Part shown: in pieces, positions 2,210 through 25,878 of the stretch
Numbering within the stretch: position 1 is the first letter of the stretch
Layout of the letters: the number at the start of each line of letters is the position of its first letter
NCBI RefSeq assembly: GCF_000008665.1
Contig: NC_000917.1
Coordinates: 300,001 to 332,000, forward strand
Direction of reading: 5' to 3'
Origin: Archaeoglobus fulgidus DSM 4304
GTDB lineage: Archaea > Halobacteriota > Archaeoglobi > Archaeoglobales > Archaeoglobaceae
Length of the DNA stretch: 32,000 nucleotides
The notes under the pieces: model-generated
Database searches by the model: none
What the model saw: only the letters and a program-made list of their open reading frames with translations
Told to the model about the DNA's origin: nothing
Made by a program: the position numbers and the translations under genes

Positions 2210-3396
2210 AGGAGCCCTCCTATTACCTCAACAACCCTCTCCCCCACAACCTTTGCAACGTCCACACCGAAGGTGGAGATGATGTACCACCCGCCGTAAA
2301 TTGTTCCTATCATGCTCCCGACATTCGTTAAAGCGGCAACGAGGAGCACGCGGAAGAACTTGTTCTGCATCATCTCCCTAAGGCTTTCCGCCTCAACGAG
2401 CTTTGAGAAATCCTCAACCGTCGGTTTCCTAATCCATGCTTCCACTAGGCCCGAAACCCAGCCGGCAGCAACAAGCGGATTAAGGGAAGTCATCCAGGCG
2501 CACAGAAATGCCGTTACTATGGACAAAGGATGCCCCCTCGCCAGCGAAGCGCCTACTGCAGAGAGCACTCCGTTAATTAAGAACCAGTAAAGAAACGCCT
2601 GAACTAGAACTTCCGTGTTGAGCGACGTGGCTATGAGGATAAAGGTTCCAACAATCAGGGCAGTAAAGGCCCCCATGAAAATTTTGAAGTAGCTTCTACC
2701 CTTCTTCACCTCCTCAAGCTCCCTCAAATTTACGGGATTTTCCTTGAGTTTCAGCAGAGCCTCCTCGATCCCCTTCCTGTGGCCAGCACCAACAACGGCT
2801 ACAATTCTGTTGTATCTGGACAGAGCGTTGAGCAGGTTGGCGGCCATGTAAACATCCCTCTCGTCGATCAGAACTTTTGCAGCGTTGGGGGATATCTTTC
2901 TGAACTCCTTTACCAGCATGTCAAGAACGTCCTCTTCAAGCATCTCATCGACCTCTATCTCATCCCCGCTGAAGGTGCTTCTTACGAGGTGAAAAATGAG
3001 CTTTATTTTCTCCACGAACGTCAGCTTCTGCCAGAAGCGCGTGAAGGTAAGGCCAATATCTCTGTCTATGAGCAGCACATCTGCTCCTGCTTCCCTTGCC
3101 TTCTCAATTGCTGCAAGCATCTCGCTGCCCGGCTTCACTCCAGTCTCCTCTCCAACCTTCCTCTGAAAGTATGCAAGAATGAGCTGAAAGAGGAGCATGA
3201 AAACGTTGCCCTTCCTTATCACATCAGCTACCGAAATCTCCTCCCTCTGCCCGTGGACGAGGGCGTGATACCTTCTCGGACAGAGCTCAACCGCAACCGC
3301 ATCGGGCTTTTCCCTTTCAATAACCTCCGCGACCTCTTCAACGCTTCTCTTGGAAACGTGTGCTGTGCCTACTATGACGAGCCTCTTTTCCTCCAA
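2206..3396 (-). CDS. TraB/PrgY (Tiki-like) family protein with C-terminal membrane domain
   Basis: N-terminal VIVGTAHVS and later VVGAGHRKGI motifs are typical of the TraB family. The C-terminal ~170 aa contain about four hydrophobic helices. Confidence 0.8.
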   Translation of the reverse strand: MEEKRLVIVGTAHVSKRSVEEVAEVIEREKPDAVAVELCPRRYHALVHGQREEISVADVIRKGNVFMLLFQLILAYFQRKVGEETGVKPGSEMLAAIEKAREAGADVLLIDRDIGLTFTRFWQKLTFVEKIKLIFHLVRSTFSGDEIEVDEMLEEDVLDMLVKEFRKISPNAAKVLIDERDVYMAANLLNALSRYNRIVAVVGAGHRKGIEEALLKLKENPVNLRELEEVKKGRSYFKIFMGAFTALIVGTFILIATSLNTEVLVQAFLYWFLINGVLSAVGASLARGHPLSIVTAFLCAWMTSLNPLVAAGWVSGLVEAWIRKPTVEDFSKLVEAESLREMMQNKFFRVLLVAALTNVGSMIGTIYGGWYIISTFGVDVAKVVGERVVEVIGGLL

Positions 3397-4460
3397 CCCA
3401 TCACCTCCAGAGCCTCAAGAATCTCCTTGATTCTCATTAAGTCGCTCCTTGACACGATTCCGACAACTCTGCCGTGCTCAACCACCGGCAGCCTCCCGAT
3501 CCCCATCTCGCTCATAATCTTGAAAGCTTCAAAGGCCGATTGGTTTGGTGAGACCGCAACAACCTCTCTGCTCATAATGTTGCCAACCCTCTCCTCGGGC
3601 TCAACCCCGATTATGTCGTGGAGAGTGATAATCCCCACAAGCCTTTCTCCTTCAACAACTGGAAATCCGAGATGCTTTGTTTTCAGAATCAAATCAATCA
3701 CTTCCGAGACCGTCATCTCCGGGGTTACAGTAACAACCTCTGTGTTCATAACATCAGCCACCCTAACCCTTCCGAGCACGTTCTCAAGCAGCACGAGCCT
3801 CTCCTCCTCGTTGGCTCCGATGTAAACAAAGAGTGCTATGAGTATCAGCCACGGATTCGTGAATATCCCGAAGATTGCCATAAATATCGCCAGCGCCCTT
3901 CCGATCTCCGCGGCAATCTTTGTAGCTTCGGCGTAACTCCTCTTCTCAGCCAAAAAGCTCCTCAAAATTCTACCTCCATCCATCGGGAAGGCGGGAATCA
4001 GGTTGAAGATGGCAAGAATGAAGTTGAGGTAGCCGAAAAGCAGAAAGAAGGCGCTGAGCTCGGCAACGGGAATTGACGAGAGGAGAGCGGAGACAACGGC
4101 AATTCCGAAGCTCGTTGCGGGGCCGGATATGGCAACCACAAGCTCCTCTCGCGGCTTTTTCGGCAGCTCATCCATCATCGCAACCCCACCGAAGATGAAG
4201 AGCATTATTCCCCTTATCCTGACACCGTATCTCCTCGCAACGAGAGAGTGGCCGAGCTCATGCGCGAGAATTGAAGCGAAAAGTCCCACCGCAGCCATGC
4301 TTGATAAAATTATCCTCTCAGACAAAGGAAAATTTGCAAAGCCGTAGGGGAACGGAGAAACTGAGAAGGCGTATATGAGAAGAACAAGCAGGATTAGAAG
4401 GCTTATGTGCACCTCCACATCAATTCCGAAGACTCTGAAAATTTTGAAGGACGCTCGCAT
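3372..4460 (-). CDS. Site-2 protease (peptidase M50) with tandem CBS domains
   Basis: Has HELGH zinc motif in a TM helix, the second S2P motif FNLIPAFPMDGG, and a C-terminal CBS pair (VMNTEVVTV.., IMSREVVAV..). Confidence 0.85.
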   Translation of the reverse strand: MRASFKIFRVFGIDVEVHISLLILLVLLIYAFSVSPFPYGFANFPLSERIILSSMAAVGLFASILAHELGHSLVARRYGVRIRGIMLFIFGGVAMMDELPKKPREELVVAISGPATSFGIAVVSALLSSIPVAELSAFFLLFGYLNFILAIFNLIPAFPMDGGRILRSFLAEKRSYAEATKIAAEIGRALAIFMAIFGIFTNPWLILIALFVYIGANEEERLVLLENVLGRVRVADVMNTEVVTVTPEMTVSEVIDLILKTKHLGFPVVEGERLVGIITLHDIIGVEPEERVGNIMSREVVAVSPNQSAFEAFKIMSEMGIGRLPVVEHGRVVGIVSRSDLMRIKEILEALEVMGWRKRGSS

Positions 4461-13448: not shown

Positions 13449-13466
13449 TTTCTACTTTTTGCTTTT
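13449..13466 (+). terminator. Oligo-T tracts downstream of aor
   Basis: T5 at 13456-13460 and T4 at 13463-13466 fit the archaeal oligo-T terminator type. The tract overlaps the 3' end of the convergent small ORF. Confidence 0.3.
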
Positions 13467-13598
13467 GGCCATCCTCGTTTCCCTGTAGCTTTTTATCTCC
13501 TCAAACTGCTCCTTAGTCGCACCGCACCTTCCGCAAACTTCAGGCGGCTCATCCCCTCTGAAAACAAGCCCGCAGAGCTTACATCTCCACCTCTTCAC
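13452..13598 (-). CDS. Mini-rubredoxin / zinc-ribbon protein (48 aa), not in the supplied ORF track
   Basis: Hand translation gives (GTG)KRWRCKLCGLVFRGDEPPEVCGRCGATKEQFEEIKSYRETRMAKSKK*. The pattern is CxxCG-x11-CxxCG. Its GTG overlaps the TGA of the upstream gene (GTGA). Confidence 0.6.
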   Translation of the reverse strand: MKRWRCKLCGLVFRGDEPPEVCGRCGATKEQFEEIKSYRETRMAKSKK

Positions 13599-14047
13599 TC
13601 TCCAATCACCTCAAACTTCTCAAAGCTCTCTCCAGGAGCGTTGCACAGCGGGCAAACGTCGGGCGTTTCGTCCTTGACAATGTATCCGCACATGGGGCAT
13701 ACGTATATCGCTTTGAAGTCCTCTGGAAACTCCAGCATTTCGGACATGTTCTTCTTGATTACCGCGAGGAATCTCAGATTCGTTGCAACCTTCCTGTTTT
13801 TCTCGGCCAAAGCTTCCTTCATCTTCTCCTCCATGAACCTTGCCTCATCCTCAAGCCTCTCCCCCATTTCCACTGCATCCCTGTAGGGGTCTTTTCCCAG
13901 GTTTCGGAGAAGGGAAATCAGTGCAATCTCCTCCGCCCTTGCGAGGGACTGGTAGAGCTTCTTTATCCTCTCGTCCTTGGCCATCTTTGCATAAGCCGAA
14001 AAAAGGCCGTAACGCTCAAGCTCCCTCCCAACAACATCCTCATACAT
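13595..14047 (-). CDS. Rubrerythrin-like protein: helical N-terminal domain lacking all His, plus a C-terminal rubredoxin-like CxxC-x11-CxxC domain
   Basis: The C-terminus is YVCPMCGYIVKDETPDVCPLCNAPGESF. The N-terminal ~110 aa are helical and Glu-rich, but the protein contains no histidine, so there are no ExxH motifs. Confidence 0.7.
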   Translation of the reverse strand: MYEDVVGRELERYGLFSAYAKMAKDERIKKLYQSLARAEEIALISLLRNLGKDPYRDAVEMGERLEDEARFMEEKMKEALAEKNRKVATNLRFLAVIKKNMSEMLEFPEDFKAIYVCPMCGYIVKDETPDVCPLCNAPGESFEKFEVIGE

Positions 14048-14078: not shown

Positions 14079-14128
14079 TTTCGAAATTTTTCTGGATTTT
14101 GAAAAATCCAAATTTACGAAATTCGAAC
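14079..14128. promoter_or_regulatory. Operator-like cluster: TTTCGAAA, 8-bp IR TGGATTTT-GA-AAAATCCA, and TACGAAATTCGAAC
   Basis: Read directly from the sequence. 14115-14128 is the exact reverse complement of 15193-15206. The cluster lies upstream of ATG 14047. Confidence 0.45.
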
Positions 14129-14184
14129 CATTTGCCTGTCTGACCTCAGGCTAAGGAAAAGGTAAAAATTGCAAACGGTAAAGT

Positions 14185-14760
14185 TTAGCAGAGCTTTTCA
14201 GCCACCTCTGCCACCCTTTTTCCGAGCATTTTTGCAACCTGCAAGTCATCCTCCTTGGGAACTCCTGTTGATGCCGCCCCGTAGTAGCTTCCAGCCCTGT
14301 AGAGTTCTTTCGCCGGGGGCAGTCCGACAATAATCATCCCGTGTGCGAAGAGAGGAAGGAGCATTGAGAGCAGCGTCGCCTCCTTACCGCCGTGGGGCAT
14401 CTCGTTTGAGGTGAAAACAGCCCCAACCTTGCCCTCAAGCCTCCTCTCCATCCACAACCTTCCCGTCATATCAATGAACTGCTTCATCTGCGAGGACATC
14501 ACTCCAAATCTCGTCGGAGAGCCAAAAATGATTGCATCATAATCTTGAAGCTCCTCTGGCCTTGCAACCTCGAAGCTTTCAAGCTCTTCCCTTACTTTAA
14601 CGTAGCCGGGGTTCTTTTCGAGGATTTCAGCCGGGATGGTTTCGGGAACTCTCTTAACAGCAACCTCCGCTCCTCCTTCCCTCGCACCATCAGCAACGGC
14701 CTTTGCGAGCTTCATCGTGTTGCCCGTGATGGAATGAAAAATAACAAGAATCCTGGCCAT
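14185..14760 (-). CDS. Flavodoxin-like NAD(P)H:quinone oxidoreductase (WrbA type)
   Basis: Has the FMN-binding N-terminus ILVIFHSITGNTMKLA, then FGSPTRFG and a WrbA-like insertion. It begins 4 nt after the SOR stop. Confidence 0.85.
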   Translation of the reverse strand: MARILVIFHSITGNTMKLAKAVADGAREGGAEVAVKRVPETIPAEILEKNPGYVKVREELESFEVARPEELQDYDAIIFGSPTRFGVMSSQMKQFIDMTGRLWMERRLEGKVGAVFTSNEMPHGGKEATLLSMLLPLFAHGMIIVGLPPAKELYRAGSYYGAASTGVPKEDDLQVAKMLGKRVAEVAEKLC

Positions 14761-14764
14761 TCAA

Positions 14765-15142
14765 TCACTCCAAGCTTAGCGTCGCCTCTCCCATCCAGAG
14801 GCCATGGATGTTGCAGTAGGAGAAGGCCGTAAGCTTCCCGGATTTCTCAGCTTTGAAGGCGAACACCGCAACCGGATCGGTGTAAACACCACTCGTGTTC
14901 GGGCCGTCAACTGAAGCCCCGTGGGCGGCAAACTCTGCCCTGCCAACTACGTAGGGGAACTTGCTGCCTTCAGGCTGAAATACAAGCTCTATCCACGCAA
15001 TGTGGTGCTCGGTTGTGTTCGGATGCGGGATTTCCTTCCCAACGCTGACCTTTACCTCCACAACTCCGCCCTCAGCCCTTAAAACCTCAATTACTGGCAC
15101 GTGCTTCTCCTTCTTCCAGTCTGCAGTCTGAAACAGTTCCAT
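14765..15142 (-). CDS. sor: Superoxide reductase (1Fe-SOR, neelaredoxin type)
   Basis: Iron ligand motifs are present: EKHVPVIE, HPNTTEHHIAW and CNIHGLW. Length is 125 aa. Confidence 0.92.
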   Translation of the reverse strand: MELFQTADWKKEKHVPVIEVLRAEGGVVEVKVSVGKEIPHPNTTEHHIAWIELVFQPEGSKFPYVVGRAEFAAHGASVDGPNTSGVYTDPVAVFAFKAEKSGKLTAFSYCNIHGLWMGEATLSLE

Positions 15143-15192
15143 GCTATCACCTCCCTTACCTTTAAAATTTCTTCCCTAATAAACCTTTCTAT

Positions 15193-15216
15193 GTTCGAAT
15201 TTCGTATTTACGAATT
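15193..15216. promoter_or_regulatory. Operator-like half-site array GTTCGAA-T-TTCGTA-TT-TACGAA-TT upstream of sor
   Basis: Lies 51-74 nt upstream of ATG 15142. It contains the IR TTCGTA-TT-TACGAA and the 14-mer shared with 14115-14128. Confidence 0.45.
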
Positions 15217-23139: not shown

Positions 23140-24542
23140 TCAGTCCTTTCAATCACAGCCTCTCCGAGACCTATCCACCTTACTCTGTAGCCGAAAGCCC
23201 GGATAGCGCTCTCTCCGAGACCGTACTTTTTAAGAATGGCTTTGATATCTTCGAGAGTTGATGGGTTCGAAACCTCAATCTCCCTTTTTATCTCCTCGAA
23301 AATCTCCCTCCTCACAGCATATTTCCCCGCGATCACGTACTCTGAAGGAACTTCCGCAAAGTTTTCCAGCTCCACAACGTCCCCCTCAACTTTCTTTTCC
23401 GGTTTATACCTCTTCAGCGCTTTAATAACCTCCCCGTAAGGGATTTTTCTGCTGAAGAGTATTACGTCTTTCACATTAGCTCCGCCGTCTCCAAAGTCCT
23501 CCCTTGCAATCAGAATCAGCGGAATTGAAGAGCTTTTAATCTTCTCAGCCTTCTTCCTGAGATACTCGTCCGTCCAGAAACCTGCTATTTCAATGTAAAC
23601 CTTCTTATCTCCCAAATTTACCGCAAAATCCGGTATAAATGCGTACTTTCCCGCTTTAACCACATCAGGCTCCCTCTCCACTTCGTAACCTAGCATCTGC
23701 ATCTTCCTTGCAAACTCCTCCTCGAGCGTTGAGTCGTAGGATAAGCGCTCCTCAACATCTGGAAAGAGGTCCCTTATCCTGTCGTCGATTTCCATGATGT
23801 ATAGCCTGTCGAAGTCCGAAATCTCAGCCCTGATGAACCAGTTTTTCGCCCGCAGTATCCACGGAATGAGCTTTGCAAAGGAGACGCCGTACTTTCGAGT
23901 CATCTTCAAGAGTGTTGCCGCTCCCGTAACCTCAACCATTAGCCTGCCAGAATCCTCATAAAGTTCGTACATCAACCCCAAACGCTTTATCGACCTGAAT
24001 ATTTCCTTATGTCTGTCGGATGCCCAGAACGTCAGCCTCAGAGCGTTGAAAAGGGTCGTCTGAAGAAGAGAAAGGTTGTAGAGCTTTATGAGGTTGTCGG
24101 GAGTCAAGGGTCTAAATTTCGTTAGAATCAACTCCTCTTCCCTGTCGGCATACATCGCCCTCTCAACCGTCTCAGGAGTAGTGCTGAAGTATCTCGCGAC
24201 ATACTCCAGAACCCTGTCCCTCTCCTTCTTAGACGTAACAAAGCCGTGTTCGAAGAGCAGCATTCTGACCTTTCTCGGCTCAAGCTCGCTGTCGACATCG
24301 AAGGCGCAGCTTTTCTCGATGCAGTGGTTCTCAAGCACCCTGATGAATCCCCTGACCTTCTTGAAGTTCTTCGCATTCTCAAGCTTTCTCGCCTGCTTCA
24401 TCAGATTGCCGTATTTCTTTCCCAATCCCTTCTTGAAAATCTCAATTACCTTTTCCGCCAGTTCGTAGTCCCTCTCATCCGCAAATTTCGGAAAAATTCT
24501 TCCCTTTGCCCTTCTGACGTCAAGCAGCTCCTTTGGCAGCAT
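23136..24542 (-). CDS. bax1: Bax1 (DUF790) XPB-associated endonuclease
   Basis: Length is 468 aa with N-terminus [20 protein letters not shown]. The gene sits immediately downstream of XPB and overlaps it by 23 nt, which is the classic archaeal XPB-Bax1 pairing. Confidence 0.8.
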
Positions 24543-25878
24543 TCTTTCTCCTCCTCGCTGTGTTCACCTCTCCTGTCCCTCTGGAAATCAGCTCATACAG
24601 CACGGCTTCCTTTTTCCCCTTGGACGGTCTGAGAATTCTCCCGAGTCGCTGGATGTACTCCCTCGCGCTACCGCTACCGCTCATTATCACACCGACGTTG
24701 GCATCAGGCACGTCAATCCCCTCGTCGAGAACCTGGCTGCTCACAATTGCCCTGAATCTGCCCGTCCTGAAGCCCTCAAGTATCTCCTCCCTCTCCTCCC
24801 TGCTGGTTCGATGCGTTATTGCCGGAATCAGAAAAACTTTCGAAATCCTGTAGACGAGCTCGTTGTGGCGGGTGAAGATTATGATTTTGTCTTTCCTGTG
24901 CCTCTCGAGTATCTCCCTCAGCTTCCTGATTTTGTTTTTGGAGTTAAAGGCTATCCTCCTCGCCTCTTCCCACGCCCTCAACGCCTCATAAGCCCTTTCA
25001 TCGTATCCAGAGGCCATAACTATCTTGTTGAAGTCCTCCGCCCTTCTCAGCGTTATTCCCCTTGCCCTGAGAAACTGCTTGTACACTTTCTCCCTTTTCT
25101 CGTACTCCACCCTCTCGTCCTCAGCAAGAGGGACAAAAATTCTTTTTATCGTGTATTTCGCAAGGTGCTTTCCCGCCAGGCTGTCTGGAAAAAGCTCGAA
25201 AACCTTCCCACCAACCACTTCCTTTAGAATTTCATGCCTTCCATCCTCCCTTTCGAAAGTTGCCGTCAGTCCCAGCCTGAAGGGAGCAATAGACATCTGA
25301 GCTATCTGGACGTAGGACTCGGCTGGAAGGTGGTGCACCTCATCGAAAATGAGAAGCATAAACCTGTTTCCCAGCTTTTCAGCGTTTACGTATGCGGAGT
25401 CGTAGGTTGAGACGGTGAGGGGTTTCAGCTCTTTTATTCTGCCACTGAACTCTCCAACGTACTCCTCACCGAAAATTCCCAGCCTCTCCTTCCACTGTTC
25501 AGCGAGGGCAAGAGTTGGGACCACAATAAGAGTTGGGGTTGAAAGCTCGTTAATAGCAGCCATTGCAACGTGAGTTTTTCCTGAGCCTGTTGGAAGGACA
25601 ATACAACCTCTTTTATCAACAAGCCACCTCTCCAGCGCCTTTTCCTGATAATCTCTCAGGCTGATTTCAGCATCGAAGTAGGGTGTGGGAATTGGGTCCG
25701 CTGCGTTGTCAACAAACTCAATGCCGTTACTTTCAAAGTACTCGATTATGTCCCTATATCTGAAGGCAAGCGCCCTGTAAGTTCCGCTTCGAGAATCGAA
25801 CTTAGCATGAGGAACGTGAGCATCACCTTTAACAACAATTGTTCCCCGTTCATAATATATTTCAGCAATCATTTGCAT
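24520..25878 (-). CDS. xpb: XPB/Rad25-type SF2 DNA helicase
   Basis: Has motif I PTGSGKT, motif II DEVH, the XPB-specific RED motif (TFEREDG), and helicase C motifs ([20 protein letters not shown]). Confidence 0.9.

Follow-up and report, generated by a model that had tools for sequence, protein, structure and literature searches.

Archaeal activators of the Lrp/AsnC family bind as dimers close to the core promoter: the dimer sites of Ptr2, LysM and Ss-LrpB lie a few bp upstream of the transcription factor B (TFB) recognition element (BRE, review PMC2995911). The targets of Ptr2 from Methanocaldococcus jannaschii are fdxA, rb2 and rbr (PMC2995911). In contrast, a review of archaeal Lrp proteins describes LrpA from Pyrococcus furiosus as repressing its own gene, with a binding site downstream of the TATA box. 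For FL10, the counterpart of LrpA in Pyrococcus sp. OT3, in vitro selection of DNA ligands (SELEX) gave the optimum GTTCGA[AAT/ATT]TCGAAC, with TACGA half-sites bound at 63% relative affinity, and a recognition code relates residues 24, 34-37 and 39 of these proteins to bases a to e of the half-site (PMC2715240). The control of oxygen-defence genes in strictly anaerobic archaea is little known, MsvR being confined to some methanogens. The locus compared here with these systems lies in a stretch of 32,000 nucleotides of Archaeoglobus fulgidus DSM 4304 (contig NC_000917.1, positions 300,001 to 332,000), called the window; positions are counted from its first letter unless they are marked as genome positions. 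Two promoters in the window, that of a superoxide reductase (SOR) gene followed by a wrbA-like gene (sor-wrbA) and that of a rubrerythrin-like gene followed by a mini rubredoxin-like gene, share an element that is most probably an operator of the Lrp/FFRP class, with FL10/LrpA-type specificity and Ptr2-type placement. The Lrp/AsnC protein AF1723 is the candidate for binding it.

The predicted operator unit is one 13-bp palindrome rather than an array of hexamers. In a sample of 60 genomes from the family, what recurs is the dyad TTCGA-WWW-TCGAA, often flanked by G and C. Both copies in the window fit the form abcde-WWW-e'd'c'b'a' at 12 of 13 positions, and their opposite orientation is explained by the palindromic nature of the site:

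15194..15206, no strand assigned: sor operator, TTCGAATTTCGTA, 12/13 of the palindrome, with a flanking G at 15193
14115..14127, no strand assigned: operator of the rubrerythrin-like unit, TACGAAATTCGAA, 12/13, with a flanking C at 14128

Perfect copies are found in the cydA promoter of A. fulgidus and in many relatives, and the orthologous sor promoters carry TWCGAAATTCGAA in the same place. The features of an FL10/LrpA-type half-site (TTCGA with TACGA tolerated, and G at -1) are present in the 14-mer GTTCGAATTTCGTA, which spans the sor operator and its flanking G, and in (G)TTCGAAWTTCGAA(C) of the relatives. It was this 14-mer that drew attention to the two promoters. As originally predicted, it occurs at 15193-15206 and, as the reverse complement, at 14115-14128; the single-contig genome of 2,178,400 bp has no further exact copy, and the best match with one mismatch lies upstream of the peroxiredoxin gene. 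The two intergenic regions have nothing in common beyond the operator (the 14-mer and an overlapping 9-mer, ATTTACGAA), which excludes a remnant of duplication. In 3000 composition-preserving shuffles of the two regions a shared 14-mer never arises and a shared 13-mer arises in 5. The probability of a chance match is therefore below about 1e-3, low as had been proposed but somewhat weaker than the proposed 1e-4.

The half-sites from which the original prediction built both regions are also present: TTCGAA at 15194-15199, TTCGTA at 15201-15206 and TACGAA at 15209-15214, so that this array ends at 15214 and not at 15216; TTTCGAAA at 14079-14086; and the inverted repeat TGGATTTT-GA-AAAATCCA at 14093-14110. 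Isolated matches to TTCGWA exist elsewhere in the window, while at least three TTCGAA/TTCGTA/TACGAA hexamers within 45 bp are found only at these two promoters, in the window as in a genome-wide scan. The additional half-sites do not behave as phased Lrp sites, since their centre spacings are irregular (~15 bp, ~35 bp) and they are not conserved. The 8-bp inverted repeat at 14093-14110 was considered as a second shared operator and ruled out, being unique in the genome.

The position of the dyad is constrained. Of 29 promoter contexts, 27 have a TATA box that begins 6-10 bp past the dyad, with an A/G-rich, BRE-like stretch in between; hence the dyad abuts the BRE. The sor promoter, read in gene sense, consists of TACGAAATTCGAA, CAT, AGAAAGG (BRE), TTTATTAG (TATA), GGAGGTGA (Shine-Dalgarno) and ATG, the BRE starting 3 bp and the TATA box 10 bp past the operator. 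Two congeners (L002, L003) likewise have GAAAGG-TTTATTA after the dyad in their sor promoters, and in a third relative, from another genus, the dyad at sor is followed by a different TATA stretch. Farther upstream, the DNA of these three sor promoters is unrelated.

In A. fulgidus, sites with at most one mismatch and a well-placed TATA box precede sor-wrbA, the rubrerythrin-like/mini-rubredoxin unit, a unit comprising ferritin, dfx and two rubrerythrins, the gene for a flavodiiron protein, two more rubrerythrin units and cydA (cytochrome bd). The peroxiredoxin promoter has a more degenerate site, with two mismatches, in the same geometry. The absence of any functional bias had been named beforehand as a reason to abandon the operator; instead, sites with at most one mismatch occur at 7 of 12 antioxidant transcription units and at 3 of ~1125 others (Fisher p = 2e-13). 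Antioxidant units were defined independently, by Pfam families; the total of transcription units is approximate, and gene calls outside the window are crude ones made in this analysis. When the set is restricted to the SOR, rubrerythrin, rubredoxin and peroxiredoxin families, p is 2e-9. Phylogenetic footprinting, another check proposed at the outset, finds the motif conserved in the orthologous promoters of relatives, where the dyad precedes genes for SOR, 1-Cys peroxiredoxin, flavodiiron protein and cytochrome bd subunit I, and occurs also at a gene resembling thioredoxin-fold protein disulfide oxidoreductases (PDO). Gene bias and conservation together support the original reading of the element as the operator of a regulator, for which a candidate can now be named. 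With moderate confidence in the explanation as a whole, most oxygen-detoxification genes of A. fulgidus would thus form one regulon devoted to oxygen and reactive oxygen species (ROS).

The candidate emerges from the motif itself. At eight loci found through it, the dyad sits between two TATA boxes, one of a peroxiredoxin gene and one of a divergent gene for a 138-aa protein with HTH_AsnC and AsnC_trans_reg domains. A protein-based search places a dyad with at most one mismatch at 18 of 30 loci of this regulator, a constant 47-53 bp ahead of the start codon. In the three genera examined in full, the regulator gene is divergent from peroxiredoxin, two rubrerythrin and SOR genes in that order; the gaps between these structural genes are 8-44 bp, which marks them as an operon. 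The A. fulgidus ortholog (66% identical) is encoded outside the window, at genome 1546913-1547329, directly after the gene for the large subunit of DNA polymerase II, and matches AF1722/AF1723, "AsnC family transcriptional regulator". AF1723 belongs to Lrp/AsnC by both of its domains (genome 1546916-1547314): PF13404 scores 47.9 bits (cut-off 27) and PF01037 49.7 bits (cut-off 25). The ortholog at L077 likewise has both. Its best match among solved structures is LrpA (1I1G, E = 2e-33, full length). It is also 46-50% identical, over the full length, to Methanocaldococcus proteins that have the exact recognition residues of Ptr2 and whose genes sit divergent from a ferredoxin gene.

The recognition residues of AF1723 are Lys24, Thr34, Glu35, Ala36, Ala37 and Arg39, which include the set expected for TTCGA (Glu35, Thr/Ala36, Ala37, Arg39), and T-E-[T/A]-A-x-R is invariant among the orthologs. 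Among the Lrp paralogs of the genome, Glu35 and Arg39 occur together only in AF1723. The other Lrp paralogs, including two with Cys-rich tails, have recognition residues unfit for a CGA site and were set aside. On these grounds, AF1723 is the putative protein that binds the dyad.

Regulator and motif are also distributed together. The regulator is present in 39 of the 60 genomes and was not found in genera g4, g5, g6, g16 and g17. Among close sor orthologs, a dyad with at most one mismatch is found in 5 of 6 regulator-positive genomes, the sixth having a degenerate dyad at the same spot, and in 0 of 7 regulator-negative ones. For rubrerythrin loci the counts are 5 of 13 and 0 of 9, respectively; the five positive loci all belong to the window's genus and carry the dyad where A. 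fulgidus has the one at genome 2070312. The genomes are related, so that these counts overstate independence. In the sor promoters of four loci from genomes that do not have the regulator (L006, L008, L011, L013), another common motif, CCGATAG / CGCGATAG, immediately precedes the TATA box. A different regulator, taking the place of the Lrp system in that genus, may bind there.

Of the described systems, Ptr2 is similar in several respects. It belongs to the same protein clade as AF1723 and recognizes a 13-bp abcde-WWW-e'd'c'b'a' site with a CGA core, a few bp upstream of the BRE; the constrained position of the dimer site next to the BRE is thus shared (27/29 contexts here). In both cases the targets, known or predicted, serve oxygen defence or encode electron carriers, with rubredoxin and rubrerythrin as examples, and in many genomes the regulator is divergent from a target gene. 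However, the Ptr2 consensus is GGACGA[AAA/TTT]TCGTCC, read by Ser36/Ser37, whereas here the site is TTCGA...TCGAA and the residues are Thr/Ala36 and Ala37. Ptr2 targets have two regularly spaced sites; no such pairs were found in the promoters analyzed here, each of which has one full palindrome and at most additional half-sites. The regulon is also wider, with SOR, peroxiredoxin, flavodiiron protein, cytochrome bd and ferritin, and activation has been demonstrated for Ptr2 while here it is predicted. In Methanocaldococcus sp. 16A (L145, 3491-6100), genes for a rubrerythrin, a hemerythrin-like protein and a flavodiiron protein adjoin the divergent pair of fdxA and the Ptr2 ortholog. Two sites in that region, TTCGAAATTCGAA (3988) and TTCGAAATTCGAC (4660), each lie 7 bp upstream of a TATA-like box; only for the site at 3988 is the target clear: the rubrerythrin gene, 72 bp farther downstream.

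LrpA and FL10 form a second point of comparison. Residues 35, 36, 37 and 39 are identical to theirs in most of the orthologs, the FL10 SELEX optimum equals the present motif, with its flanking G/C and its tolerance for TACGA, and a single cysteine in a VCP motif is present in both. They differ in that LrpA has been characterized only as an autorepressor acting downstream of the TATA box, the only targets listed for it being vor and por, and in having Phe24/Ser34 in place of Lys24/Thr34. LysM of Sulfolobus solfataricus is likewise an Lrp activator with a site just upstream of the BRE; its consensus can be written GGTTCGA[AAT/ATT]TCGAACC and its Glu35-Ala36-Ala37-Arg39 are identical to those of AF1723. 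Unlike the system described here, LysM is lysine-responsive, serves lysine biosynthesis and comes from a different phylum, and orthology is not claimed. An incomplete full-text literature search found no paper on AF1723, nor one tying LrpA-type proteins to the control of SOR, peroxiredoxin or rubrerythrin.

The explanation considered somewhat probable is that a dimer of AF1723, as a member of the LrpA/FL10/Ptr2 clade, binds the 13-bp palindrome TTCGA-WWW-TCGAA and activates the oxygen/ROS-detoxification regulon in the manner of Ptr2. The bound dimer would help to recruit the TATA-binding protein (TBP) and TFB. A distance of only 0-3 bp between the site and the BRE downstream of it favors Ptr2-like activation; from this placement we infer that binding would activate rather than repress. 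The activity of the regulator would respond to redox or oxygen status. The orthologs conserve a GDH motif and the single cysteine of the VCP motif, also present in LrpA, which at this stage are a lead only as to what may be sensed.

Several observations weigh against this explanation. Neither in the genome nor in the 60 genomes of the family does the palindrome outnumber reversed or other control patterns; abundance is therefore left out of the evidence and the case rests on position and gene context. Four antioxidant units do not have a site (two rubredoxins, a short rubrerythrin-like open reading frame (ORF) and a second gene for a flavodiiron-like protein). In the published transcriptome of growth on CO, AF0343 and AF0344 fall together 1.8-1.9-fold, but AF0342 and AF0341 are not among the changed genes, so that co-regulation of the two units in the window is putative. 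Residues 24 and 34, Lys and Thr in AF1723, are Phe and Ser in FL10. Within the window's genus, no target adjoins the regulator gene and no autoregulatory palindrome accompanies it; a search of the short AF1723 promoter did not yield a convincing one. Finally, autorepression is the known activity of LrpA, the closest characterized homolog that shares this specificity, and a site that touches the BRE could equally well block TFB.

The last two points lead to the idea that AF1723 binds the same operator as a repressor, which, sitting beside or over the BRE, hinders TFB/TBP and is released under oxidative stress. MsvR sets a precedent, its box B, upstream of a TATA box, having been proposed to block the BRE. 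At two loci of relatives (L071/L072, 1440-1530) the palindrome of the PDO-like gene is, unlike at other targets, placed downstream of the TATA box, with 16 bp between it and the start codon, a repressor-type position; at locus L143 of the Hadarchaeota, 14 bp separate the site from the start codon of a regulator homolog, which it precedes. However, LrpA represses from downstream of the TATA box, whereas 27 of 29 sites here are upstream and abut the BRE, as with Ptr2, LysM and Ss-LrpB. Moreover, in published array data from anaerobic cultures the expression of dfx, the rubrerythrins and cydA is reported to be constitutively high, a poor fit with tight repression when oxidants are absent. Together with the fall of AF0343/AF0344, these data are mildly more compatible with activation. 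Repression is regarded as a possible but doubtful mode of action.

It is improbable that the operator is real but serves another protein, such as MsvR, a different winged-helix redox regulator or one of the Cys-tailed Lrp paralogs, with the link to AF1723 a coincidence. MsvR has the same half-sites, TTCGTA/TACGAA, and controls an oxidative-stress operon (fpaA-rlp-rub) that encodes rubrerythrin-like and rubredoxin proteins, with its boxes beside the BRE and TATA; the isolation of the candidate regulator gene from its targets in the window's genus also favors another binder. Nevertheless, MsvR belongs to a different protein family, the V4R redox regulators, and is a repressor when reduced. The V4R domain (PF02830) has no match in the genome, which is 99.99% complete. 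The MsvR operator is TTCGTA-N4-TACGAA (or TTCG-N7-9-CGAA), in contrast to the conserved 13-bp TTCGA-N3-TCGAA with its 3-bp centre; the sor promoter has a version with N2, TTCGTA-TT-TACGAA, and the rubrerythrin-like promoter has none. Because the domain is missing and the spacing differs, an MsvR operator is rejected. The Cys-tailed paralogs do not have Glu35 and Arg39. The divergent arrangement of regulator and peroxiredoxin genes with a site at a fixed distance, which recurs in many genera, the covariation of regulator and motif and the identity of the site with the FL10 optimum all speak against another binder.

The constant position directly upstream of the BRE and TATA box would also suit an extended core-promoter element, read by a general factor such as a variant of TFB or TBP. 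This is very unlikely for a perfect dyad around a WWW centre that is used in both orientations, also between divergent TATA boxes, that exactly matches an Lrp SELEX optimum and that is absent where one particular Lrp gene is absent. Chance resemblance without function is strongly disfavored. In its favor are the ordinary abundance of the palindrome and the fact that about half of the sites with at most one mismatch in the genome fall in coding DNA, where they are counted as chance. It does not account for the failure of shuffled regions to yield a shared 14-mer, for conservation across genera in otherwise unrelated DNA, for the enrichment at antioxidant promoters or for the fixed distance to the TATA box.

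If AF1723 does act on the palindrome as proposed, a DNA specificity measured in vitro is tied to a coherent natural regulon of SOR, Dfx, rubrerythrins, peroxiredoxin, flavodiiron protein, cytochrome bd and ferritin. The LrpA/FL10 clade, famous for its structures, would gain a candidate physiological regulon, and AF1723 is named as a candidate oxidative-stress regulator for anaerobic archaea. The promoters and the 13-bp site form a ready set for in vitro transcription and binding work. The comparison suggests that Ptr2-style activation of antioxidant genes is common to Archaeoglobales, Methanococcales and possibly Thermoplasmata. A much bolder and tentative proposal is that the LrpA/Ptr2/TvFL3 clade is an ancient and widely conserved archaeal master regulator of oxygen/ROS defence, functionally a counterpart of bacterial OxyR/PerR, and activates while bound next to the BRE. 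Its signal would be redox state or metal, not an amino acid, sensed through the invariant His (GDH) of the RAM domain and the single invariant Cys (VCP). If so, the Archaeoglobus regulon, the rb2 and rbr targets of Ptr2 and regulator-rubredoxin pairs in Thermoplasmata would be versions of one system. Such pairs are seen in two metagenome-assembled Thermoplasmata genomes (L152 and L153, both 2850-3001), where rubredoxin-like genes (MRKYVCRVCGY...) lie divergently to those of regulator homologs whose loop is of the TvFL3 type (S-E-G-T-x-R). Their shared intergenic region contains TACGA-type palindromes, as the published recognition code predicts.

The remaining promoter parts at the two window loci are as follows:

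15176..15190, minus strand: predicted BRE (AGAAAGG) and TATA box (TTTATTAG) of the sor promoter
14097..14114, minus strand: predicted BRE/TATA-like stretch of the rubrerythrin-like promoter, AATTTGGA-TTTTTCAAAA, with a weak TATA
15209..15214, no strand assigned: third half-site, TACGAA, which with 15201-15206 gives TTCGTA-TT-TACGAA; role uncertain
14080..14092, no strand assigned: half palindrome TTCGAAATTTTTC, with a perfect TTCGA arm and WWW centre

The third half-site is not conserved in the sor promoters of the relatives. The half palindrome may serve as an auxiliary site; its centre is 35 bp from that of the main site and near the expected transcription start. The inverted repeat at 14093-14110, with its perfect 8-bp arms, overlaps the expected BRE/TATA of the rubrerythrin-like promoter. 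The genes controlled by the two promoters are:

14765..15142, minus strand: sor, 1Fe superoxide reductase/neelaredoxin (AF0344), Pfam Desulfoferrodox E = 2.6e-33, heading its unit
14185..14760, minus strand: WrbA-like flavodoxin-fold protein (AF0343), Pfam Flavodoxin_1 and FMN_red, 4 bp past sor
13595..14047, minus strand: 150-aa rubrerythrin-like protein, with Pfam RUBY_RBDX confined to the C-terminus, heading the downstream unit
13452..13598, minus strand: mini rubredoxin-like gene, 48 aa, RUBY_RBDX E = 1.4e-13, overlapping the stop codon of the rubrerythrin-like gene

A close ortholog of the 150-aa rubrerythrin-like gene was not found among 59 related genomes.

Other matches to the palindrome stand apart from the regulon. 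Perfect sites at genome 1430118 and 1120824 and a site with one mismatch at genome 1910582 were discarded, as none has a plausible promoter or target. In the window, 25788-25800 is a palindrome with one mismatch, TTCGAGAATCGAA, inside the coding region of the minus-strand gene 24520-25878, and probably reflects chance. In genome G033 (L063, 1501-1513), a 309-aa ORF whose N-terminal part includes a hydrophobic stretch (...GFTGLEAAIVLIAFVVVAAVF...) is preceded, at a distance of 155 bp, by TACGAAATTCGAAC, with no obvious TATA box beside this site; the ORF is archaellin-like by eye, no family search having been made. The 5' end of the A. fulgidus peroxiredoxin gene (genome 247300-247420) is split over two frames, with LAPLLGDN... 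following the Shine-Dalgarno sequence in one and FPEIEVVTTHGRMKLPE... in the other. This appears to be a one-base frameshift or a sequencing error near codon 8, since the orthologs are intact. Before one rubrerythrin gene there is a 60-aa ORF (MSDPKQLVLEAMKRAGKPVRPGDIAKETGLDSKEVSKIIKELRKEGLV..., genome 2070361-2070543) with the operator at its promoter; it resembles a small helix-turn-helix protein by eye, again with no family search made. The arrangement and the site are kept in all five other genomes of the genus.

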